Source: an uncultured bacterium (GTDB taxonomy: Bacteria; Patescibacteriota; Doudnabacteria; UBA920). Taken from it: a stretch of DNA of 64,000 bases. This document shows positions 34,549 to 58,562 of the stretch, piece by piece (the stretch's first letter is position 1; the number at the start of each line of letters is the position of its first letter). The stretch lies in NCBI GenBank assembly GCA_963749445.1, contig CAVVMJ010000007.1:9971-73970 (forward strand). The letters are read 5' to 3'. Under the pieces are notes generated by a model. That model saw only the letters and a list, made by a program, of their open reading frames with translations, ran no database searches and was not told where the DNA came from. The position numbers and the translations under genes were made by a program.

Positions 34549-35707
34549 CTATACCATCGCCCTCGCCACCGCTGCCACCGCGGATTTATCCAAAGGGCTC
34601 GGAATAATGTTTGCCGGATTTAGTTTGGTTACGCAACCCGCCAGGTTTTTGGCCGCCCTAATGAGCATCGGCTGGGTAATTTGTTTTATCTGATTGTCCA
34701 GCGCGCCGCGGAAGATTCCCGGAAAAACCAAAACATTGTTAATCTGGTTGGGAAAGTCCGACCGGCCCGTGGCCACAATAAAAGCTCCGGCCCGCTTGGC
34801 CGAAACGGGATTTATTTCCGGATCCGGATTGGCCATGGCAAAAATTACCGGGTCTTTGGCCATGCTTTTAACCATCCGCTGGCTTAAAATATTCGGCGCG
34901 CTCACGCCAATGAAAACATCGGCTGATTTTAAAGCGCCTGATAAATCCCCGGCAATTTTACAGCCGGTCAGTCTTGCCAGCTGGCGTTTGTGCCAGTTCA
35001 AGTCTTTGCGATGACGGCCGATGATTCCCCTACTATCACATACGATAACATGCCGGAAACCGTATTTCATCAGCAATACGGTAATGGCCGTGCCTGCCGC
35101 GCCTGCACCGCAGATGACCACTTTGGTTTTTCCAGCGGTCTGACGTTTTAGCTTTAGCGCGTTAATCAGCCCGGCCAAAACCACCACGGCCGTGCCGTGC
35201 TGGTCATCGTGCATCACCGGTATATCCAGTTCCGCTTTGAGCCGCCGCTCTATTTCAAAACAGTGCGGCGCCGAAATATCCTCCAAGCTTATGCCGCCAA
35301 ACGCCGGCGTGATATTTTTGATGGTGCTGATAACGGCTTCGGTATCCTGCGTGTCTAGGCAAATGGGGACAGGCGTCAACTCCAGCCAACCGTTTAAATA
35401 AAACACACTTGCCTTCCATAACCGGCAACGCCGCCAAAGGCCCCAAATTCCCCAATCCCAAAACCGCGCTGCCGTCTGTCACCACGGCTACGGTATTTTT
35501 TTTGATGGTATAAATTTTGGCCAGAGATTTATCTTGAAAGATTTTTTGGCAGACATCGGCCACGCCCGGGGTATAAGCCAAAGAAAGATCCCTACGGTTT
35601 CGCAGGGGTATTTTGCTTTTTATTTCCAGTTTCCCGCCGTGCTTTTTGTGCAGGGCTAAAGATTGTTTGCCGAGGTCGTTCATTTTTTTTATCAACACCG
35701 TGCTCAT
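34549..35707 (-). CDS. NAD(P)-dependent malic enzyme, split by an apparent single-base frameshift near 35395-35410
   Basis: The N-terminal ORF has LSLAYTPGVA and VVTDGSAVLGLGNLGPLAALPVMEGKCVLFK. The downstream ORF continues ICLDTQDTEAVIS...VICGAGAAGTAI. Confidence 0.7.
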
Positions 35708-48692: not shown

Positions 48693-51128
48693 CTAGTCAG
48701 AAAACCGCCGGTAAAAACGGCGCTTAATCAATTCCACCAAAACCAGGTAAACCGCGGTTATCAAAATAATTCCGCCTACCGCAGTTACCGGCAATACAGC
48801 AAATTTAAATACCGCGCCAAACCTTGACAGCGCCACCCACCAGCCCGCGGCAATGGCGGCCAGCACGGAAAACGCCAAATACTTGGACGGATTGCTTTGC
48901 AGGAACGGAATTTTTTTGGTGCGGATAATAAAAATCACCAAAGCCTGGGTGGCTAGGCTTTCTAAAAACCAGCCGGTCTGAAACTTACTGCCGGAAAATT
49001 TAAATACCACGAACAGCAAATAAAAAGTGGCAAAATCAAACACGGAACTGACCGGGCCGAACACCAGCATAAACTCCTTAATGAATTTTAGGTTCATTTT
49101 GCGCGGTTTCTGAACCTGTTCGTGATCTACCCGGTCAAGGGGAATGGTGAATTGGGAAGAATCGTATAAAAGATTGTTAAATAATATTTGCGTCGGCAGC
49201 ATGGGCAAAAATTTAAAAAACAGCGAAGCTCCGGCCATGGAAAACATATTACCGAAATTGGATGACAGCGCCATCATTAAATACTTCATGGTGTTGGCAA
49301 ACGTCTGCCGTCCCTGGATAACGCCGTTGGCCAAATCACGCAGGCTTTTGTGCATTAAAATCAGATCAGCCGAGTCTTTGGCCACATTGACCGCGTTGTT
49401 CACGGAAATGCCCACGTCCGCGGCTTTCAGGCTCGGCGCGTCATTTATGCCGTCACCCATATATCCGACCGTGTGGCCGTTTTTTTGCAAGGCTATGATG
49501 ATGCGCTTTTTCTGCTCCGGATTGACGCGCGCGAAAATCGTGGTGGCCTCAACGGCTTTAACCATTTCGTGGTCGGATAACTTTTCTATTTCCTCGCCGA
49601 GCAATACTCCTAAAACCGGCAGCTCAATTTCCTGGGCGATTTTTTTGGTCACCAAATCGTTATCACCGGTAATAATTTTAATGCTAATGCCGTAATGTTC
49701 CAGCAATTTTAAAGTTTCCGTAACGGTTTTTTTGGGCGGATCCAAAAACGCCACAAAGCCCAAAAATATCATAGCTGATTCATCCGCTTTATCGTAAACT
49801 CTTTTGGATTCACTAATGGGTTTGTAAGCGATGCCGAGCACTCGAAATCCGTCCTGACTTAATTTCCGGTATTCATCTTCCAGTTCTTTTAACACATGCG
49901 GTGTAAGCTTGGTCTCTTCGTTTTTATAATGACCACAAGTCGTCAATAACCCCTCGGGCGCGCCTTTGGCCACCAGCTCTTTGCCTGCCGCGGATTCCAC
50001 CACCACGCTGTCCCGCCGGCGGTCAAAGTCAAACGGGATTTCATCGAGCTTCTGATAATGTTTGGTTTCGATCTTTTTAAATTTCTTGATGGCGGCATCC
50101 AGCGGGTTATGGAAACCGCTGCGGAACGTGCTGGTCAAATACGCATACTCAAAAATTTTCTCATCCGCCTCGCCCTTGGCATCCAAATATTTTACCAGGA
50201 CAATGTTGTCCTCGGTCAAAGTTCCGGTTTTGTCCGTGCACAGTACGTCCATACTGCCGAAGTTTTGGATGGATGATAGTTTTTTCACGATAACGCCGTG
50301 CTTGGACATATTCAAACTACCTTTGGAAAGGTTTAACGCGATAATCATCGGCAATAACTCCGGGGTCAAACCGACTGCCAGCGCGGCCGAAAACAAAAAC
50401 GATTCCAAAATGTTGGCCTTAAGCAGGGCGTTTATCAAAAAAATGCAGATTACCAAAACAAAGGTAATCTTCATAATCAAATAACTAAAATCTTTGATGC
50501 TGCGGTCAAATTCCGTGGGCTGTTCGCTGCCTTCCAGAGATTGCGCAATATGGCTAAACTTGGTTTGCCGGCCGGTAAGCTCCACTTCCATGGTCGCCGT
50601 GCCGCTTATGACGCTGGTGCCCAAAAACAGGGGAGTACCCGGCTCTTTTTCCGTGGGGAACGATTCGCCGGTCAACGCCGACTCGTTCAGAAAAAAATCT
50701 TTGGCCTGCAAAATTTTGCCGTCAGCCGGCACTAAATCGCCGGCTTCCAATTCCACCGCATCGCCGGGCACGATTTGCCGAAGCGGTAAATCAACGGTTT
50801 TGCCATCGCGGATGACGCGCGCCAGGACCTGGACTTTTTCCTTTAATTCCTCTGCCGCGCGGCTGGACCTAAAAGTATTAATAAAATCCAGCAGCACGCT
50901 TACCAAAATAATGGCGATGATAATCGTGGCGCTCACCGGATCGCCGGTCAAAGCCGATATGCCGGCCGCAAACACCAAAATCAAAACCAGCGGATTCTTA
51001 AACCTTACCAAAAAATCCACCAACCCTGAAATCTTTTTCCCCTCCGCCATCTGGTTCGGCCCATACTGCTTAAACCGCTTTACGGCTTCGGCTGATGTTA
51101 AACCTAAATTTTGATTTGTTTCTCCCAT
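48693..51128 (-). CDS. mgtA: magnesium-translocating P-type ATPase (MgtA-like)
   Basis: DKTGTLT phosphorylation motif, TGDN, GDGxNDxP-like motifs and MgtA-like N-terminus. 811 aa. Confidence 0.75.
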   Translation of the reverse strand: MGETNQNLGLTSAEAVKRFKQYGPNQMAEGKKISGLVDFLVRFKNPLVLILVFAAGISALTGDPVSATIIIAIILVSVLLDFINTFRSSRAAEELKEKVQVLARVIRDGKTVDLPLRQIVPGDAVELEAGDLVPADGKILQAKDFFLNESALTGESFPTEKEPGTPLFLGTSVISGTATMEVELTGRQTKFSHIAQSLEGSEQPTEFDRSIKDFSYLIMKITFVLVICIFLINALLKANILESFLFSAALAVGLTPELLPMIIALNLSKGSLNMSKHGVIVKKLSSIQNFGSMDVLCTDKTGTLTEDNIVLVKYLDAKGEADEKIFEYAYLTSTFRSGFHNPLDAAIKKFKKIETKHYQKLDEIPFDFDRRRDSVVVESAAGKELVAKGAPEGLLTTCGHYKNEETKLTPHVLKELEDEYRKLSQDGFRVLGIAYKPISESKRVYDKADESAMIFLGFVAFLDPPKKTVTETLKLLEHYGISIKIITGDNDLVTKKIAQEIELPVLGVLLGEEIEKLSDHEMVKAVEATTIFARVNPEQKKRIIIALQKNGHTVGYMGDGINDAPSLKAADVGISVNNAVNVAKDSADLILMHKSLRDLANGVIQGRQTFANTMKYLMMALSSNFGNMFSMAGASLFFKFLPMLPTQILFNNLLYDSSQFTIPLDRVDHEQVQKPRKMNLKFIKEFMLVFGPVSSVFDFATFYLLFVVFKFSGSKFQTGWFLESLATQALVIFIIRTKKIPFLQSNPSKYLAFSVLAAIAAGWWVALSRFGAVFKFAVLPVTAVGGIILITAVYLVLVELIKRRFYRRFSD

Positions 51129-51462
51129 ACTTTGTGCTTTTCTTTATTTTAGCACAAAAAAACCGAACTTTGCTCCAAATAGCTCGGCCTCCTGAACGAC
51201 GTTCGTACCTGTGTGGAAATTGCCCCGGTTTAACCCCGACTAGTACTTTAAACTTGGTTATCTAAATCTTTAGCATTAACACCCATTTTTTTATAATAGC
51301 AATCAGCCAGTTCCTGTAATTTTTTTAAGTTGGACAACATTTCTTCTTCTAAAAGCAACGGCCTATAAGTATCCATTATAATCCTAATAAGTAAACCGGC
51401 CACAAAAATACAATCTACGTACGCGTTCTGGACATCTTTGTCTGATGAACTGCCCCCAACGT

Positions 51463-52245
51463 TTATCCGAACCTGTAAACGTCCGTCTTTGACACCGCCT
51501 TGTGTAACCTTTGATTGAATGTACTTAAAAGTGGCGTGGAACCCATTTCTGAAAATTTGCTATAATATTCGTCTCGGGCTGGCTTACCTAATTTTTTTCT
51601 TACGGCAGCAGGTTTTAACTCTTCCCAACGTTCTTTTGTATCTTCGCCGGCCCAAAGTTTTATAAGTTCAGGACGCAGATTGAATAGCTCTATTTTATCA
51701 ATAATGTCTAAAACAATTCTCGTATGCGCTATGGATTGCGGCGCAAATCTATGCTCTGCCAGGTGATATGCGACAACAATTTCATCTATAGCGGAGAACA
51801 ACAAACCCAACTTCGCCATATCTGCTGACTTTAAACCGCTGTCCGAAACGTCAGAAAGATAATTAAGTAAAGTTTGCCCTATAAAAATAAAAATCTCTTT
51901 TGCTTCCGCAGCCAAGTTAGTTGTTGGGTTGGGCGCTTTATTTAAACTATCCAGGAAAGTATTCAGGTCAAAATGTTCATTTTTAACTTGTTTGGATAGC
52001 CGCAGGGCTTTCCTTTTGTCTAAACTGTCTGGCTTACTTTTCCAAGTTTTAGTAATTTCATCATTTGCTTCTTCCAGAAGTTTAATTTGTTTATCAATCA
52101 GCTCTTTTGCCTCGGGTGTTAACTCTTCATAATGTTCCGACGCAAATTTGAGGTGTTCGGATATAGCATTAGCTAAATCCGCTTCTGTCTTGGCTTGTGT
52201 TGCTGCGTCTTTAAGTTTATTTTTTAAGAAATCGGCATCAATCAT
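51463..52245 (-). CDS. hypothetical protein (island gene; weak HEPN-like R-x7-H)
   Basis: 260 aa, helical and charged. HRFAPQSIAH resembles an Rx4-6H motif only loosely. Confidence 0.3.
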   Translation of the reverse strand: MIDADFLKNKLKDAATQAKTEADLANAISEHLKFASEHYEELTPEAKELIDKQIKLLEEANDEITKTWKSKPDSLDKRKALRLSKQVKNEHFDLNTFLDSLNKAPNPTTNLAAEAKEIFIFIGQTLLNYLSDVSDSGLKSADMAKLGLLFSAIDEIVVAYHLAEHRFAPQSIAHTRIVLDIIDKIELFNLRPELIKLWAGEDTKERWEELKPAAVRKKLGKPARDEYYSKFSEMGSTPLLSTFNQRLHKAVSKTDVYRFG

Positions 52246-52347
52246 TTTTATAGCGCCATTAGTTCTATGGTAAAATTTAGCCCCCAGCCCAACTCATGGT
52301 ATCTTTGGGGAGGTTCACGGGGTTCACTGATTCACGTTCTTAAATGT

Positions 52348-52641
52348 TTATTTTCTTAAAAAATAAGCTAATAAATATCCAACAATGGCTGTCGCAACAA
52401 TCGCTATAATAATCTTATAGCTTTTACTAAGTATGTCTTTAGCGAGTTTAGAAATGCCCTTCCAAATTCCCCAAAAAATTAGCATGATGGGTGCCAAAAT
52501 ATAATTTAGCAGAAATTCTATAACACTTATTTTTTTATCGTATTTGTTCCATCTTTTTTTCATAATGGTCTGATTATGGCTTTCTCCATTTATCCCGGCC
52601 ACCGACTTTCGTATCCCGCACTCGTTCAACATGCGGAGCAA
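52348..52641 (-). CDS. hypothetical small membrane protein
   Basis: 97 aa with two TM helices. Overlaps the next ORF by 68 nt, so one of the two may be mis-called. Confidence 0.25.
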   Translation of the reverse strand: MLRMLNECGIRKSVAGINGESHNQTIMKKRWNKYDKKISVIEFLLNYILAPIMLIFWGIWKGISKLAKDILSKSYKIIIAIVATAIVGYLLAYFLRK

Positions 52642-52795
52642 CGCCGGGGTTTAATTCTTGAGCTATCTCGATCGCTTCTTGCTGGGTAGGAGCGGTTGCG
52701 GAAGCCCTATCCGCGTCCGCCCTTCTCACGGCGTAATCGCCTTGTTCGCGCCGCTCCACATACAATCTTTTGTCCGATTTACTCATAAGTAACAA
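52574..52795 (-). CDS. DUF2188 family protein
   Basis: RLYVERREQGDYAVRRADADRASATAPTQQEAIEIAQELNPGVAPHVERVRDTKVGGRDKW matches the DUF2188 consensus. Confidence 0.5.
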   Translation of the reverse strand: MLLMSKSDKRLYVERREQGDYAVRRADADRASATAPTQQEAIEIAQELNPGVAPHVERVRDTKVGGRDKWRKP

Positions 52796-52805
52796 AGTTA
52801 ATTTT

Positions 52806-54311
52806 TTAGGTAGTGATTTTTTCTTTCTTCTTTTGACTTAAATTTTCTTTTGCCAAGTCTACATTATTACAGAAGAAAGAATATAATTCATCGAAACTAG
52901 CAATGTATTCTTGAGGTGTAAGTTTTTCGTCGTCTTCTGGTACTGCCAACTGTATAGCGGCAGTTTCTATAAGATATAGGATTTGACCTCGGCTGGCTTT
53001 ATAACCTGAAAATAAATTGTTTATTACCAAAGTTTTTTTACTATTAACTTCCTCAATCATACTTCTGAGACTTTCATCCATAGGCCTAATATCCCAGTCC
53101 AAAAATTCCTTGAGCCTGCGGCGCTTTCCAGTTGCATCAGGTGGAGGGGGTGTTCGTGGGTTGTACTTTCGATTTAAGATTTCAGGTTTGGGTTTGGGAT
53201 CAACGGGTTCCACAGTCTTGATGCGGGGTTTTTGACCTTGGGTAAACGTATCCATTAAATTGGAACCTTTTATGTCCTTGTTACGCATTTTCATTAATTC
53301 GGCAACCAAATCTTTAGCGTTCTTTACCCGGTCTTTTTCTTCATCTGTTGCTTCTTGTATTTCCCTACCGAGCAAATCATCGATATGGGGTTTGAGAACC
53401 TCAAACATAAGCTGGCTAACCTCCTGCCACTCATCTGTATCCCTGTCAAAATCAGTTTTATTGGTTGTTGCGTGAACGTGGTTGAGGTAAACTTCGCCAA
53501 ATAGTGAATTAAGTGTTTGTTTATAATGAGCGTCGGGGTGTCCGAAATACTCTCTATCGCAGATAAGCCGACCAAGCTTATAACATCTTATTCCTCCCTT
53601 AACTCCGGTTCTTGGGGCAAGCCTGCCAACCCATCCCTTAATTTTTTTATAATGTTCATCACCAAACCGTAGAGGAAACTCGAATTTTTGAATTTTAAAT
53701 GACTCCTCAAGGGGAAAGTCTTTGGTTTTAACTAATTCGTCATTAATTCGAAATTCAACCTCGTAGTTATCTATAAGCGGTTTGTATCTATCGACAACTA
53801 GCAATTTTAATTCGTCGTTCTTAACTTTACGTTTTAATTTATGCACTTCGACTGAGACAAATCCGTCTTGATTGTTTGTATCAAATTGTTCAACTTGAAA
53901 TTTTTTAAGTCTGTAGTCGTGAAGATTATCGTCCTCAATTTGATAAACTATTTTGCTTTTGTCCGGAGAAGCCTTAACAATCATAGTACCACCCAAATAA
54001 CCCATAGCCGCTTTACCACCTTGTGAGTACGCTCCTAAATCGTGAGACTCCCTCTCTTTTATTTTTCCCCAAGCCAAAAAATCCTGTAATTGATCCGGGC
54101 CCATTCCCTTGCCCCCTTTGTTTGTAATAGAAATAAATTTTGGAGAAGTGAGTATTTCAACAATTAGTTTTTTCCCAATTATCCGATTACTAACAGCATT
54201 GTCTAGTAGTTCCAAAACAGCCTCTTCCCAATTTTTAAAGTTGGAGTAAAGGGAGTGTTTTAGCCCACCTTCGAAGCTTTCTTGTAATATTAATTTTTTA
54301 TTCTTTTTCAT
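52806..54311 (-). CDS. GHKL (histidine-kinase/HSP90/MutL-like) ATPase domain protein with a long charged C-terminal region
   Basis: N-box ELLDNAVSNRI and G1-box ISITNKGGKGMGPDQL. No kinase dimerisation or DNA-mismatch domains seen. Confidence 0.5.
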   Translation of the reverse strand: MKKNKKLILQESFEGGLKHSLYSNFKNWEEAVLELLDNAVSNRIIGKKLIVEILTSPKFISITNKGGKGMGPDQLQDFLAWGKIKERESHDLGAYSQGGKAAMGYLGGTMIVKASPDKSKIVYQIEDDNLHDYRLKKFQVEQFDTNNQDGFVSVEVHKLKRKVKNDELKLLVVDRYKPLIDNYEVEFRINDELVKTKDFPLEESFKIQKFEFPLRFGDEHYKKIKGWVGRLAPRTGVKGGIRCYKLGRLICDREYFGHPDAHYKQTLNSLFGEVYLNHVHATTNKTDFDRDTDEWQEVSQLMFEVLKPHIDDLLGREIQEATDEEKDRVKNAKDLVAELMKMRNKDIKGSNLMDTFTQGQKPRIKTVEPVDPKPKPEILNRKYNPRTPPPPDATGKRRRLKEFLDWDIRPMDESLRSMIEEVNSKKTLVINNLFSGYKASRGQILYLIETAAIQLAVPEDDEKLTPQEYIASFDELYSFFCNNVDLAKENLSQKKKEKITT

Positions 54312-54329
54312 AAGATTGTTTTTAACTGG

Positions 54330-54554
54330 TTATAACCTAAATTCTCCTTTTTGCCTAGGAAAATAAAATTTTGTCTTTATATCCTTTGTGGCTCTTTCTA
54401 TTTCTGAAAATATTTTGTTTATCTCTTCCGGAGTGTAGTCGTAAGCGCTACGATTCGAGCAATTACCTAAAACCCTAAGCTTTTTTAAGACCTCGTTTGT
54501 TCTATAAACTGCCAGCCTTTTAAACCTTTCCTTTTTATTATCAATGGATACCAT
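54330..54554 (-). CDS. hypothetical protein
   Basis: 74-aa ORF immediately upstream of the GHKL ATPase gene. Confidence 0.3.
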   Translation of the reverse strand: MVSIDNKKERFKRLAVYRTNEVLKKLRVLGNCSNRSAYDYTPEEINKIFSEIERATKDIKTKFYFPRQKGEFRL

Positions 54555-54717
54555 ATATTTATATCCTGTGTATATTTAATGCTTATACGGTAATAGTATA
54601 CTCCTATTGCGTATTTTGTCAATAGGTACTTTTAAAAATCAAAAAAGTACCTCATTTAAAACATTTTGTTATCATTTACCTTTACCTAAGGCTCGCTCTC
54701 CAGGAGAGATGAAAATG

Positions 54718-54996
54718 CCAAGGCATTTGACAAACCCAGTAACAACAAGTAAGATTAAGTCATACTCATTAATTAACCATAAATTTATGCGCACGACGCA
54801 AACCATGACAATTTCCCTGCCGCCGCAGATTATGGAATACTTGGAAACTTACAGAAAAAAACACGATTTTACCCGGTCGGAACTAGTAAGACACGCTTTG
54901 CGGGAATTATTCAATAAACAATCTCCTGTTAATAAGCCGACAAAATCCGAGCAAGTATACCCAAAAAGGTTGGGGAGAAACAAAAAACACTACTAA
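54718..54996 (+). CDS. ribbon-helix-helix (CopG/Arc-like) DNA-binding protein
   Basis: GGAGAGATGAAA-ATG. The C-terminal TMTISLPPQIMEYLETYRKKHDFTRSELVRHALRELF is RHH-like. Confidence 0.45.
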   Translation, partial: PRHLTNPVTTSKIKSYSLINHKFMRTTQTMTISLPPQIMEYLETYRKKHDFTRSELVRHALRELFNKQSPVNKPTKSEQVYPKRLGRNKKHY

Positions 54997-55122
54997 AATC
55001 CCGCCCCGAGCGAAGCCGAGGGGCGGGATTTTAAACAGTTAATTAGATGGCAACCAATACACCTCATCTGTCGCTCCGATGCAGTCGCGACATCTTCCCC
55101 TCCAGGGGAAGAGGCTCCGCGG

Positions 55123-56694
55123 TTAAACCCCGCGCAATAATTCTATTTTGGCGCCAATCTTGCGCAGGCGCGAGACGAGGTCTTCGTAGCCGCGGTTGAT
55201 GGAGTAGGCGTTGCGGAGGATGGAGGTGCCTTTGGCCGCCAGCATGGCGACCAGAATGTTGGCGGCCGGGCGCAGGGCGGGAGGACAAATGACTTCTGCG
55301 CCGCGGAGCTCGGTCGGCCCTTCAATGTATACCCGATGGGCATCGGCCAAAATTATATTGGCGCGCAGCTTGGTTAATTCCATATAGTAAATTGCGCGGT
55401 TTTCGTAAACCCAGTCGTGGATTAAAGTTGTGCCCTTGGCCTGCGTGGCAATGGGCACAAAAAACGGCAAATTGTCTATATTTATGCCCAATCCGCCGGG
55501 CAACGGGTGCAATTTTTCCTCCAGCGCCTTGAGTTTGGAAGGAAAAGCTTGCACATCGGCCAAATTGGTTATGCCGTTATAACTTTTGTACTGTTTGATA
55601 ATTTTATAGCGGAAACCCATTTTTTCCAGCTTTAAAAGTTCAAGCTCCAAAAAATCAATCGGGCAACGCTCAATCGTCAGCGAAGAATTCGTCGTGGCCG
55701 CGATGGCCAAAAACAGCATTGACTCAATCGGGTCTTCGCTTAAATAATAACTGACGGTTTGGTTGATATGCGGTTTGCCGTGGACAACAAGAGTGGAAGA
55801 ACCGACCCCGTCTATTTTTACGCCCAGGGCAATAAGGAAATGGCACAAATCCCGCACCATATAATTGGCGCTGGCCATTTTGATGATGGTAATGCCGGGC
55901 AAGCGCGCGGCAGCCATTAAGGCATTTTCCGTAACCGTATCACCGGTTTCATAAAGTACGATTTCGGAGGTTTTCCCGCCGGAGGCGGATCCGCCTTTGG
56001 CGGAAAGTCCAACCGATGTGACCTGGTAATTATCATGGGTGGTTTTAACTTTAACGCCCAGTTTTTCCAAAGCGAACAAATGCGGCCGCACCGTGCGCGC
56101 GCCAAGGCGGCAGCCGCCGGGGTGGGGAAGGGCAAAATTTTGCAGCAGATGAACCAGCGGCCCAAGCAGCATCAGCACGCTGCGCGTTTTGGCCGCGGAC
56201 TCCACGTCCATAGCCTTTAAATTCAGCCTTTTTGGCGGAATAATTTGCAAATCCCGGTCTTTCCATTTCACATCCACGCCAATGCTTAAAAGAACTTCCA
56301 CCATCCGATAGACCTCTTCAATCTTGGGAACTCTTTTGAGTATGGTCTTGCCCGAATTGAGCAGGCTCGCGCACAGCAGAGCCACGGCCGCGTTTTTAGA
56401 GGTGTTGGTGGTTACTTTGCCGGAAAGTTTAAACCCACCTTCAATTTTAAAATTAACGCTTTGGCCGCCCAAAGTAATAATTTCCCGCCCCAGCACGGCG
56501 CTGATTTTAGCCAGGGTTTCCGTTGTTAAATTCTGCAAACCGTTTTCCATGCGGGCCACGGCCGATTGGGAAGTTTTCAGCAGCACGGCAAACTCCGCCT
56601 GGGTCAAGCCCTTTTGTTCGCGCGTCTGGCTAATAAACCGGCCGATTCTGGCCTGTTCTTGGGCGATATTTTTAGTTAAAGCCACATTTGGCAT
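55123..56694 (-). CDS. murA: UDP-N-acetylglucosamine 1-carboxyvinyltransferase with N-terminal XRE-type HTH domain fusion
   Basis: The N-terminal 70 aa (GLTQAEFAVLLKTSQSAVARMENGLQNLTTETLAKISAVLG) are HTH_XRE. The rest is an EPT-family enzyme. There is an internal GGSASGG insertion at 55970-56000. Confidence 0.75.
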   Translation of the reverse strand: MPNVALTKNIAQEQARIGRFISQTREQKGLTQAEFAVLLKTSQSAVARMENGLQNLTTETLAKISAVLGREIITLGGQSVNFKIEGGFKLSGKVTTNTSKNAAVALLCASLLNSGKTILKRVPKIEEVYRMVEVLLSIGVDVKWKDRDLQIIPPKRLNLKAMDVESAAKTRSVLMLLGPLVHLLQNFALPHPGGCRLGARTVRPHLFALEKLGVKVKTTHDNYQVTSVGLSAKGGSASGGKTSEIVLYETGDTVTENALMAAARLPGITIIKMASANYMVRDLCHFLIALGVKIDGVGSSTLVVHGKPHINQTVSYYLSEDPIESMLFLAIAATTNSSLTIERCPIDFLELELLKLEKMGFRYKIIKQYKSYNGITNLADVQAFPSKLKALEEKLHPLPGGLGINIDNLPFFVPIATQAKGTTLIHDWVYENRAIYYMELTKLRANIILADAHRVYIEGPTELRGAEVICPPALRPAANILVAMLAAKGTSILRNAYSINRGYEDLVSRLRKIGAKIELLRGV

Positions 56695-56904
56695 ATTTTA
56701 TCCGCCTAAATTTTATATTTAATAGAATAAAATTAAACTCAATTATCCACCCTAACTTATTGGGTGTTTGATAATAAACAACCAAAATTTTGCGGATTTA
56801 TATCACCTATGATATTTATTGCATTCTAATTATAGCAAATCTAACTAATTCCGTCAAAATATACCATATATGACAAAACCCGCACGTAGGTGCGGGTTAA
56901 AGTT

Positions 56905-57005
56905 TTAAGTTATAAGTTGTGGCGGCCGGTACGGTCATAGGGATATGGTTTTAGGCGACTTACAACCTATTACCTACAACTATACTGGCCGCCATACCTT
57001 ATAAC
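56905..57005. repeat. long inverted repeat (22-nt arms GTTATAAGTTGTGGCGGCCGGTA / ACTGGCCGCCATACCTTATAAC) upstream of murA
   Basis: Arms separated by about 50 nt in the 320-bp intergenic region. Confidence 0.5.
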
Positions 57006-57017
57006 CTATTCCCCATC

Positions 57018-57227
57018 TTAAAAATGAAACAGCTTCCCAAACCAGTGTTCCAAATACTGCGAGCGCTGGTTAGTAAAATAAACCACTAACAACGCAGCAA
57101 GATAAATCAAATTCAAATACAACACCTTCCATAAATCATGCCGGATAATCCGGTATTCTGCCGCGTGCATTGAGCCGCCGGAAACGGTTACGTTTTCCTG
57201 GACGATTTTTTTGTGCTTTTTGGACAT
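57018..57227 (-). CDS. hypothetical small membrane protein
   Basis: About 69 aa with one TM helix. Confidence 0.3.
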   Translation of the reverse strand: MSKKHKKIVQENVTVSGGSMHAAEYRIIRHDLWKVLYLNLIYLAALLVVYFTNQRSQYLEHWFGKLFHF

Positions 57228-57392
57228 AAATAGTAGCGTTCCCAAATATACAAATCAACACAAATATACAAATTACTGACAGTGCTATAGATTTGTATAT
57301 TTGTTAAAATTTGTATATTTGCGATTACTACAATTATAGCATTTGAAAGGATTTGAACGCAAGCCGCCGGAGTGCTACAATACCAAAAGCTT

Positions 57393-57881
57393 ATGACTTC
57401 ACCGCTTCTCAGTTTAGCCGCTTTAATCATCGGCATTTTGGCTTTAACCGTGGCCATTGTCGGCTGGTTAAGTTTGCGTTCCTTTAACCGCCTGCGGCAA
57501 ACGTTTTTTACCGGCAGCGGGGGAGCCAACCTGGAGCATATCCTCAATAGCCTGGCCGCAGATTTCCGGCAACTGCAAAGCCAACAAACGGCCCTGGAGC
57601 AGACCTTATTAAAGCTCAAAAAAGATTTCGGTTTCGCCGTGCAGAAAATCGGCGTGGTGCGCTTTAATCCGTTCGCGGACGGCGGCGGCAATTTTAGTTT
57701 CACTCTGGCCCTGCTCAACGGCCACGACACCGGGGTGGTCATAACCAGCATGCACGGCCGCGAGCAGAACCGAATTTATACCAAAAAAATCCAAGACGGA
57801 AAAAGCGAAACAGCGCTGACCGAAGAAGAACAGCAGGCCATTGAACGCGCGGTTGACCAGCATCGCAAACAGATGGAATAA
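57393..57881 (+). CDS. DUF4446 family protein
   Basis: N-terminal TM helix. GVVRFNPFADGGGNFSFTLALLNGHDTGVVITSMHGREQNRIYTK matches the DUF4446 core. Confidence 0.5.
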   Translation: MTSPLLSLAALIIGILALTVAIVGWLSLRSFNRLRQTFFTGSGGANLEHILNSLAADFRQLQSQQTALEQTLLKLKKDFGFAVQKIGVVRFNPFADGGGNFSFTLALLNGHDTGVVITSMHGREQNRIYTKKIQDGKSETALTEEEQQAIERAVDQHRKQME

Positions 57882-58118: not shown

Positions 58119-58562
58119 ATGGACAAAACGTTGAGTGACGAAAATTTAAGCCAGCAGGCCGAGACCGTGGTCGGGCCGTCCGTAAAAATTCAGGGCGACC
58201 TGAATTCCGAAGGCAACATCCGCATAGAAGGCCAGGTCAGCGGCAAAGTCAAAACCAGCCAAAGCGTGTTCGTCAACCAGGGCGCCAAAATCGCGGCCGA
58301 CGTTGTGGCCGGCAACGCCGTCATCGGCGGAGATGTCCAGGGAAATCTTAAAATTTCCGGGCACTTAATTCTCCAAACCACCGCCAAAATTACCGGCGAC
58401 GTCACTTGCTCAATTCTGCGCGTGGAAGACGGCGCCCAGTTTACCGGCAAATGCGCCATGAACGGCGCCGTGGCGGGAGCCCAACCGCCCACCAACGGCC
58501 ATACTGAACGCGGCGCCAGCAAAAAAACCGGCCGTGAGGAAATTTTGGAGATGGAAGAATAG
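58119..58562 (+). CDS. bactofilin family cytoskeletal protein
   Basis: Repetitive beta-helix pattern (GNIRIEGQVSGKVKTSQSVFVNQGAKIAADVVAGNAVIGGDVQGNLKISG...). Confidence 0.65.
   Translation: MDKTLSDENLSQQAETVVGPSVKIQGDLNSEGNIRIEGQVSGKVKTSQSVFVNQGAKIAADVVAGNAVIGGDVQGNLKISGHLILQTTAKITGDVTCSILRVEDGAQFTGKCAMNGAVAGAQPPTNGHTERGASKKTGREEILEMEE

Follow-up and report, generated by a model that had tools for sequence, protein, structure and literature searches.

Why would the gene for MurA, the first committed enzyme of bacterial cell-wall synthesis, begin with a DNA-binding domain? The question is raised by a gene on the minus strand (55123..56694) of a 64-kb stretch of DNA (the window) from the patescibacterial contig CAVVMJ010000007.1, in which the initial annotation had noted an N-terminal XRE-type helix-turn-helix (HTH) domain fused to MurA. 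This observation was confirmed. The gene is a single uninterrupted open reading frame of 523 codons plus the stop codon (55123-55125), and its product is identical to database protein P0001. Pfam searches placed HTH_3 (PF01381) at residues 23-72 (E 2.2e-12, 47.3 bits against a cut-off of 23) and EPSP_synthase (PF00275) at residues 85-509 (E 3.9e-42). In NCBIfam searches, the protein scored 308.7 bits against the MurA subfamily PRK09369, above its cut-off of 297, whereas the score against the equivalog TIGR01072 was 294.2, below its cut-off of 392.7.

The HTH module comprises residues 14-75 (56470..56655, minus strand), and AF2 predicted four helices at residues 4-27, 32-39, 43-50, and 58-68, with the recognition helix at residues 43-50. 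The nearest PDB sequences were all Cro/C1-type DNA binders, namely HigA, MBF1, C.BclI, PezA, HipB, SinR, and 434 repressor. The HTH is joined to MurA by a short, flexible linker (residues ~69-79; 56458..56490, minus strand), in which pLDDT fell below 50 at residues 73-77 and I72 and L75 are nearly invariant. The MurA body spans residues 80-523 (55126..56457, minus strand); solved MurA structures aligned to residues ~80-522 only, and the AF2 model matched them with TM ~0.9 normalized to the target. Residues K100, N101, R171, C195 (encoded at 56110-56112), R200, D407, R475, and R501 correspond to the catalytic and substrate-binding residues K22, N23, R91, C115, R120, D305, R371, and R397 of E. 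coli MurA, and all eight were conserved in 80/80 family members. By contrast, E. coli D369 is not conserved, the position being Ala or Pro, and the family carries two short insertions (residues 231-240 and 377-385).

To determine whether the fusion could be an artifact, in which a missed stop codon or frameshift hides a separate small HTH gene, a condition that had been set beforehand as the one that would refute the fusion, we compared related sequences. All 120 best database clusters (67-100% identity, 499-535 aa; from NCBI, JGI, ENA, and Logan) carried both Pfam domains, and the HTH and MurA lay in one frame and one HSP in 72 of 80 related genomic loci from species-representative genomes. 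The fusion was also found in distant representatives at 33-55% identity and in many RefSeq actinomycete genomes. The architecture is conserved in hundreds of genomes, and its conservation indicates that it is under selection. At the protein level, nine HTH residues, including the recognition helix, were invariant in 72/72 fusion proteins; within the recognition-helix segment T41-S-Q-S-A-V-A-R-M-E-N-G-L-Q-N55 (56530..56574, minus strand), these were T41, Q43, S44, R48, E50, G52, Q54, and N55. We found nothing in favor of a sequencing or assembly artifact or a recent accidental fusion, and the comparative data effectively refute it; a stop codon in this one genome would not change what the family is. 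The remaining eight loci represent related lineages that do without the HTH, indicating that the domain is dispensable in some backgrounds. A tblastn search within +/-3 kb of these HTH-less murA genes, even at E <= 10, revealed no separate HTH gene.

We next asked what the HTH might bind. The initial annotation had proposed that the domain could autoregulate cell-wall synthesis, or derive from the fusion of a small upstream regulator gene to murA, with a 22-nt-arm inverted repeat upstream as a possible operator. This interpretation was partly supported: the fusion of a small XRE-type regulator was borne out and autoregulation is strongly suggested, but the proposed operator and a broad control of cell-wall synthesis were not. 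The inverted repeat itself is genuine, with arms at 56910-56931 and 56983-57004 matching with 3 mismatches in 22 (0 matches expected by chance), and forms part of a longer imperfect hairpin at 56906-57008 (minus strand; RNA fold z -5.8). However, it is present in a single copy in the 3' region of the upstream 75-aa gene, between the stop codon of that gene and its canonical terminator hairpin with a U-tract (CCCGCAC-CUAC-GUGCGGG-UUUU; 56875..56896, minus strand), and therefore upstream of the murA promoter, ~50-150 nt from the -35 hexamer. It had no counterpart in any of the 80 related loci, an Rfam search of the hairpin and of the murA leader returned only sub-threshold, generic hairpin hits, and its long arms and 7-nt center are unlike an XRE operator. 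It is thus very unlikely to be the operator, and a different, conserved palindrome accounts for the data.

This palindrome is an 18-bp sequence, TATATCA-N4-TGATATA. Its exact 14-mer core was present in 15/69 fusion upstream regions compared with 0 in 512 kb of background, and with <=2 mismatches in 45/69 against 0.002 expected per 150 nt. By PWM, 67/70 fusion loci scored above the 99th percentile of background, in contrast to 0/8 HTH-less orthologues; the three fusion loci without a convincing site within 200 nt were L015, L068, and L069, the last of which has a site at -638. In a held-out test, a PWM trained on loci L001-043 found sites above the 99th percentile in 27/31 Saccharibacteria and Actinobacteria loci (Mann-Whitney p 1e-20), at a fixed position of -47 to -53 from the residue-16 codon, which is about -27 from the ATG. 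In 51/65 sites, the right half or 3' flank contained a >=5/6 TATAAT match, for example TGATATAAT, an extended -10, showing that the palindrome usually overlaps the predicted -10 box. The palindrome also co-varied with recognition-helix residue 42, as Thr42 occurred with TGCTATA half-sites in 7/7 cases and Ser42 in 0/58 (Fisher p 1.4e-9), although this co-variation rests on only ~2-3 independent lineages. Furthermore, the AT-rich palindrome persists upstream of the horizontally acquired copies in actinomycetes with 61-70% GC.

In the window, two copies bracket the predicted promoter. The best promoter-like match in the region (11/12, 17-nt spacer) consists of a predicted -35 hexamer TTGACG (56852..56857, minus strand) and a predicted -10 hexamer TATAAT preceded by TG, an extended -10 (56829..56834, minus strand). 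Putative operator O1 (56860..56877; minus strand TTTGTCATATATGGTATA; 17.0 bits) lies 2 nt upstream of the -35 hexamer, and the closest relatives have a site in the same position, whereas putative operator O2 (56799..56816; minus strand AATATCATAGGTGATATA; 19.9-20.1 bits) lies at about +6 to +23 from the predicted transcription start. These were the only two sites above 10 bits in the 64 kb. Both are imperfect, the center of O2 being AGGT and the left half of O1 being TTTGTCA. Moreover, an unusual ~104-nt leader between O2 and the ATG (56695..56798, minus strand) is lacking in relatives, so the promoter assignment here rests on consensus matching alone.

To investigate whether the palindrome controls other genes, we searched beyond murA. 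In 512 kb of flanks, only one strong extra site was found, probably an operon start in L069. A third palindrome-like site in the window (35034-35047) is intragenic, in a malic-enzyme-like gene, and consistent with the background rate of ~0.4 per 64 kb, and was treated as chance. In a reverse test, 33 of 120 metagenome loci chosen only because they contain the exact palindrome had an HTH-murA starting at the site. The only other recurrent neighbors were stand-alone XRE proteins with nearly the same recognition helix (TTQSNVARMEKGQQNF), some with a HigB/RelE-like partner. About 70 exact palindromes lay beside unrelated, heterogeneous genes with no cell-wall families among them, so the sequence alone is not unique to this system, and a broad autoregulation of cell-wall synthesis is not supported.

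Collectively, these findings suggest that HTH-MurA is a bifunctional enzyme-repressor, whose HTH binds, presumably as a dimer, to the palindrome on the promoter of its own gene and so represses its own transcription, amounting to negative autoregulation of the committed step of peptidoglycan synthesis. We consider this reading likely. What the sequence comparisons establish is that both domains are intact, that the palindrome is conserved and confined to the fusion genes among the orthologues compared, that it overlaps predicted promoter elements, and that protein and DNA co-vary; catalysis, physical DNA binding, dimerization, the direction of regulation, and any modulation by MurA ligands are inferred. 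MurA is usually described as monomeric, and our data do not show how the protein would dimerize on a two-fold-symmetric site.

We considered whether the HTH might instead be a protein-protein or localization module, as the RodZ HTH is for MreB, tethering MurA to the division or elongation machinery, with the palindrome bound by another factor or being a promoter feature. HTH domains can serve as protein-interaction modules, and a bactofilin gene lies 1.4 kb away; however, this neighborhood is not a conserved feature of the actinobacterial loci. No HTH_25/RodZ-type match was found among the Pfam hits, and the HTH is followed directly by the predicted soluble MurA fold without a transmembrane segment. 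Together with the restriction of the palindrome to HTH-bearing orthologues, its co-variation with residue 42, its transfer with the gene into actinomycetes, and its presence beside stand-alone XRE proteins, these results make this alternative unlikely.

Another possibility is that the protein is mainly a sensor-regulator, in which the MurA body senses a ligand and a different enzyme supplies catalysis, as in MocR/GabR or ROK-type regulators. This is most plausible in actinomycetes, which are expected to have a housekeeping MurA and in which the copies are acquired extra genes in unrelated neighborhoods; the TIGR01072 score and the lack of D369 also point this way. Nevertheless, the eight catalytic or binding residues are conserved in actinobacterial members as well, no second murA lies in the window, and the HTH-less orthologues nested in the same clade look like ordinary MurA, so this reading also appears unlikely. 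In MocR/GabR/PdxR regulators and ROK repressors, the enzyme-like domain mostly acts as a sensor with reduced or no catalysis, whereas here the full catalytic set is retained.

Among characterized systems, BirA, the biotin protein ligase and bio operon repressor, resembles the proposed enzyme-repressor in having an N-terminal HTH fused to a catalytically active enzyme and a palindromic operator on the promoter of its pathway's own gene, so that enzyme abundance or ligand state can feed back on transcription, as in 'trigger enzymes' with a DNA-binding domain in the sense of Commichau and Stulke. BirA, however, has a winged HTH and a biotin-ligase fold, and its DNA binding depends on ligand-induced dimerization, whereas here the HTH is Cro/C1-type, the enzyme is MurA, and ligand control is conjecture. 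PutA (RHH-proline dehydrogenase) and NadR (HTH-NMN adenylyltransferase) likewise combine enzyme and repressor in a single polypeptide that regulates its own pathway, with different DNA-binding folds and enzymes, and neither acts in cell-wall synthesis. HigA-type XRE antitoxins, which autoregulate toxin-antitoxin operons, include the closest natural solved HTH by sequence (6af3_B), and the stand-alone XRE proteins beside the same palindrome are probably the evolutionary source of the HTH and its operator. In contrast to these antitoxins, HTH-murA has no adjacent toxin gene, and its C-terminal partner is an enzyme rather than a toxin-binding region. The gene is monocistronic between its predicted promoter and a terminator hairpin with a U-tract (54993..55034, minus strand), and its neighbors are the 75-aa ORF, with no Pfam match, and downstream AT-rich ORFs, for which a defense-system annotation was rejected because they gave no PADLOC or Pfam hits. 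Canonical MurA (E. coli, E. cloacae, B. subtilis MurAA, and others) shares the fold and the catalytic residues, including the fosfomycin-target cysteine, but has no DNA-binding domain, and its level is controlled by proteolysis (ClpCP with ReoM/ReoY in Firmicutes) or by partner proteins, and is not known to be controlled by the enzyme binding its own promoter.

MurA levels are a control point of cell-wall synthesis and MurA is the target of fosfomycin, yet we know of no case in which MurA regulates its own gene by binding DNA; full-text literature searches found no description of an HTH-MurA fusion, the one apparent hit being the author name 'Murarka', although this absence is not proof because most subscription journals were not covered. 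A more speculative possibility, which we hold only tentatively, is that HTH-MurA is a ligand-gated trigger enzyme, in which the open/closed or UDP-MurNAc/PEP-adduct ('dormant') state of the MurA body controls dimerization or DNA affinity of the HTH, so that murA transcription would be set directly by flux through the first committed step. PDB entries show MurA proteins binding UDP-MurNAc together with a PEP-Cys adduct (3su9, 3swd, 3swe, 3swg, and 8d84), which would be a plausible signal. In this view, the protein would be the main cell-wall precursor homeostat across most Patescibacteria, whose small genomes would be expected to encode few regulators, would replace the proteolytic or partner-protein control used by other bacteria, and would have been exported once to actinomycetes, the phylum that includes the known hosts of cultured Saccharibacteria.

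The arrangement is conserved across the ultra-small Patescibacteria, and the nested position of the actinobacterial clade is a clean example of gene flow from Saccharibacteria into the phylum that includes their known hosts. The analysis provides a defined cis-element, defined predicted specificity residues, and natural controls in the form of HTH-less orthologues, and the cultured Nonomuraea, Allokutzneria, and Actinopolymorpha, which carry the system, for example in Nonomuraea WP_214634277.1, Allokutzneria multivorans JCM 17342, and Actinopolymorpha rutila DSM 18448, make a putative regulatory mechanism of the largely uncultured Patescibacteria directly accessible to biochemistry and genetics. 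RefSeq names many of these proteins only 'helix-turn-helix domain-containing protein' or plain MurA, and both names miss half of the protein. Finally, other inverted repeats near the ATG (ATCCGC/GCGGAT and TTATC..CACCC/GGGTG..GATAA) were rejected as operators, as they are not conserved and belong to the genome-specific leader, which has only a weak fold signal (z -2.3) and no homologue in related loci, and in which predicted pairing of AUCCGC with GCGGAU covers the SD-like AGGCGGA.

The minus-strand ORF at 55123..56694 is uninterrupted and encodes 523 residues. Pfam placed an HTH_3 domain at residues 23-72 (E 2.2e-12, 47.3 bits against a gathering score of 23) and an EPSP_synthase domain at residues 85-509 (E 3.9e-42). 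The NCBIfam MurA subfamily model PRK09369 scored 308.7, above its cut-off of 297, and the stricter equivalog model TIGR01072 scored 294.2, below its cut-off of 392.7. Solved MurA structures aligned only from about residue 80. An AlphaFold2 model (pLDDT 86, pTM 0.81) displayed four N-terminal helices (4-27, 32-39, 43-50 and 58-68), followed by a low-confidence linker at about 69-79 and a confidently folded MurA body, and a Foldseek search with this model returned only ordinary MurA chains of 417-438 residues (TM ~0.9 per target, ~0.72 per query); no solved structure has the extra domain. The initial annotation, which described the protein as a MurA fused to an N-terminal XRE-type HTH domain, was therefore correct in this observation.

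To investigate whether the fusion could be an artefact in which a stop codon separating a small HTH gene from murA had been missed, a condition set beforehand as one that would refute the observation, we examined its relatives. All 120 best database clusters (67-100% identity, 499-535 aa, from NCBI, JGI, ENA and Logan assemblies) carry both Pfam domains. In a scan of one genome per species, 597 relatives were found and 80 were kept (designated L001-L080), and in 72 of these 80 loci the HTH and MurA lie in the same frame and the same HSP. A profile-free search of 1.8 billion cluster representatives found further fusions whose MurA part is only 33-55% identical (protein clusters P0122, P0130, P0132, P0143, P0144, P0151, P0180 and P0238), all of which retain the motif TSQSA(V/I)xR(I/M)ExGxQN. 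A ninth, P0124 (529 aa, Logan assembly), is a fusion-length relative whose HTH region is degenerate, having lost the recognition-helix motif (GITLEEQLGMEQE...), and may represent a decaying HTH on the way to loss. By contrast, eight close relatives (62-70% identical in MurA, including Liptonbacteria and Jorgensenbacteria MAGs) lack the HTH and have no similar HTH within 3 kb. Since these eight nest inside the fusion clade, secondary loss is the simplest reading. Collectively, these results exclude an artefact.

Both halves of the protein look functional, as judged from sequence. Against E. coli MurA, taken from NC_000913.3, residues K22, N23, R91, C115, R120, D305, R371 and R397 are conserved in the window protein as K100, N101, R171, C195, R200, D407, R475 and R501, and the same eight residues are conserved in 80/80 family members, whereas D369 is not conserved and two short insertions are present at 231-240 and 377-385. 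This conservation speaks against the alternative that the MurA body has a sensor-only role, which remains partly possible for the actinobacterial copies. In the HTH, R25, T41, Q43, S44, R48, E50, G52, Q54 and N55 are invariant in 72/72 fusion proteins, although overall identity falls to ~55%. By sequence, the nearest natural solved HTH domains are those of HigA, MBF1/EDF1, C.BclI, PezA, HipB, SinR and 434 repressor. A protein-interaction role for the HTH, as in RodZ, was also considered, but the protein does not have the RodZ architecture.

K-mer counting on the upstream regions of the related loci revealed an AT-rich palindrome. Its 14-mer core, TATCAYATRTGATA, occurs exactly in 15/69 fusion upstream regions and nowhere in 512 kb of other sequence from the same loci; with <=2 mismatches it occurs in 45/69, against 0.002 expected per 150 nt, and in 0/8 HTH-less loci. 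Most apparent misses carry variants of the same 18-bp layout, with 7-nt half-sites around a 4-nt centre, namely TATCGCA/TGCTATA, TATCTCA/TGAGATA and TATACCN/NGGTATA. A symmetrised PWM scored 67/70 fusion loci above the 99th percentile of 1856 background windows, against 0/8 HTH-less loci. Because this PWM was trained on the same regions, we repeated the test with a hold-out, in which a PWM trained only on L001-L043 recovered sites in 27/31 loci from L045-L080 above the 99th percentile of their own background (Mann-Whitney p 1e-20), the best sites clustering at -47 to -53 from the residue-16 codon, which is about -27 from the ATG. In several lineages the palindrome instead lies far from the start codon (L013, L017, L022, L028 and L031, with sites at -155 to -179, and L069, with a site at -638), which implies long leaders or an upstream co-transcribed gene. 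In 51/65 sites the right half or its flank contains a >=5/6 match to TATAAT, often as TGATATAAT, an extended -10, where binding would occlude the promoter.

The protein and the palindrome also co-vary. All seven proteins with Thr instead of Ser at position 42, the residue before the invariant Q43, have GC-type half-sites (TGCTATA), whereas none of the 58 Ser42 proteins does (Fisher p 1.4e-9). On the tree, however, the Thr42 proteins represent about two or three lineages, so that this evidence is suggestive rather than conclusive. Subsequently, the test was run in reverse on 120 metagenome loci retrieved only because they contain the exact 18-mer TATATCAYATRTGATATA, and in 33 of these an HTH-murA gene starts right at the site. 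Only two other neighbour families recur: six loci have small stand-alone XRE proteins with a near-identical recognition helix, which in L162 reads TTQSNVARMEKGQQNF, and five have small HigB/RelE-like proteins, with both in tandem in L111 (the loci concerned are L086, L092, L093, L099, L111 and L162, and L095, L150, L153 and L190). The remaining neighbours are heterogeneous and include no cell-wall genes. The palindrome therefore looks like the cognate operator of one XRE subfamily, which probably originated as toxin-antitoxin or small autoregulators and of which one branch became fused to MurA. The XRE and HigB/RelE-like loci resemble HigBA-type toxin-antitoxin modules that share the operator, and are a likely evolutionary source of the MurA-fused HTH.

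Reading the minus strand of the window, the upstream 75-aa ORF (57018..57245, -) stops at 57018 and is followed at 57008-56906 by a ~100-nt long imperfect hairpin, the inverted repeat that the initial annotation had proposed as the operator. This hairpin is genuine (0 chance matches expected, RNA fold z of -5.8), is single-copy in the window, matches no Rfam family and is absent from relatives; it may be a 3'-UTR structure or a small inserted element. A canonical terminator hairpin with a U-tract lies at 56896-56875, followed by putative operator O1 at 56877-56860 (TTTGTCATATATGGTATA, 17.0 bits). A predicted -35 hexamer, TTGACG, at 56857-56852 and a TG-extended -10, TATAAT, at 56834-56829 together form the best promoter match in the region (11/12), and putative operator O2 lies at 56816-56799 (AATATCATAGGTGATATA, 19.9 bits). 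O1 and O2 are the only sites above 10 bits in the whole 64 kb. A ~104-nt leader (56695-56798) then precedes the ATG at 56694. This leader is absent from all related loci, and those of the lineages with distant palindromes are unrelated to it; predicted pairing of AUCCGC with GCGGAU would cover the SD-like AGGCGGA, but the fold signal is weak (z -2.3), and the leader may be an insertion remnant or an added translational control. A strong terminator at 55034-54993 follows the gene, so it is monocistronic. The closest relatives (L002, L003, L005 and L006) share the two-site layout around the promoter but lack both the long hairpin and the extra leader. The inverted repeat therefore belongs to the 3' end of the neighbouring transcription unit, is specific to this genome, and is not the operator.

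The best-supported model is that of a bifunctional enzyme-repressor, in which HTH-MurA makes enolpyruvyl-UDP-GlcNAc and also, presumably as a dimer, binds its own promoter and represses it. The half-site centres are 11 bp apart, which puts them on one face of the helix. The computational analysis itself establishes the intact domains, the exclusive and positionally fixed association of the palindrome with fusion genes, its overlap with promoter elements and the co-variation, whereas DNA binding, dimerisation, the sign of regulation and the enzymatic activity are inferred. The interpretation in the initial annotation was thus supported only in part, in that autoregulation through the HTH is favoured but through a different cis-element. 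A further conjecture, resting on analogy with BirA alone, is that the ligand state of MurA gates DNA binding, for which candidate signals would be the open and closed conformations, or the UDP-MurNAc plus PEP-Cys adduct complexes seen in several PDB entries.

Functionally, this model resembles BirA, PutA and NadR, the trigger enzymes that carry a DNA-binding domain, while the HTH and its putative operator resemble those of HigA-like XRE autoregulators. In sequence and predicted fold the protein has the features of MurA, apart from the TIGR01072 score, and of the XRE HTH family, but it lacks the adjacent toxin gene that defines an antitoxin. Full-text searches of an incomplete library found no description of an HTH-MurA fusion or of its operator, although the proteins themselves are in public databases under generic names. 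Enzyme-repressors are known, and what differs here is that the enzyme acts at the committed step of peptidoglycan synthesis; the arrangement is of interest because the architecture is phylum-wide, a likely operator and a candidate specificity residue are now defined, and cultured actinomycetes make it testable.

Besides Doudnabacteria-like relatives, which are the closest to the window, the fusion occurs in Kerfeldbacteria, Nomurabacteria and other Paceibacteria, and in Saccharibacteria. It also occurs in Actinomycetota, namely the cultured Allokutzneria, Umezawaea and Actinopolymorpha, and Acidimicrobiia and Actinomycetales MAGs, and one 90% cluster has 246 members spanning many cultured Nonomuraea species, which RefSeq names either MurA or 'helix-turn-helix domain-containing protein' (actinobacterial loci L056, L057, L062, L064, L072 and L073, and protein cluster P0122). 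The actinobacterial genes have host-like GC (0.61-0.70), sit in unrelated neighbourhoods and are 65-68% identical to one Saccharibacteria subclade. In 200 NJ bootstrap replicates they are monophyletic in 200 and group with that subclade in 199, and Saccharibacteria are never monophyletic without them. This indicates a single old transfer from Saccharibacteria, an episymbiont lineage, into Actinomycetota, the phylum that includes the hosts of cultured Saccharibacteria, with the AT-rich palindrome retained despite the high-GC background.

Elsewhere in the window, a second, larger inverted repeat lies at 57229-57335, in the divergent intergenic region between the 75-aa ORF and the DUF4446 gene (57372..57881, +). 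It consists of four copies of a 13-nt unit, CAAATATACAAAT twice and its complement ATTTGTATATTTG twice, and may be the operator of some other regulator; it is unrelated to the murA palindrome. A bactofilin (polymer-forming cytoskeletal protein) gene at 58119-58562 (+) lies 1.4 kb from murA, next to a DUF4446 gene and a DAGK/YegS-like kinase gene. Immediately downstream of murA, at ~51000-55000, is an AT-rich stretch (GC 0.35-0.41, against 0.47-0.56 for murA) whose ORFs have no Pfam or PADLOC match, comprising a 501-aa protein (52806..54311, -), a 74-aa protein and a 129-aa protein whose sequence looks ribbon-helix-helix-like by eye; it may be a mobile or defence island. Finally, a malic-enzyme-like gene at 34549-35707 (-) appears split into two overlapping ORFs (35255..35707 and 34549..35406), which could reflect a frameshift, a pseudogene or a sequencing error, and contains a chance near-match to the palindrome at 35034-35047.
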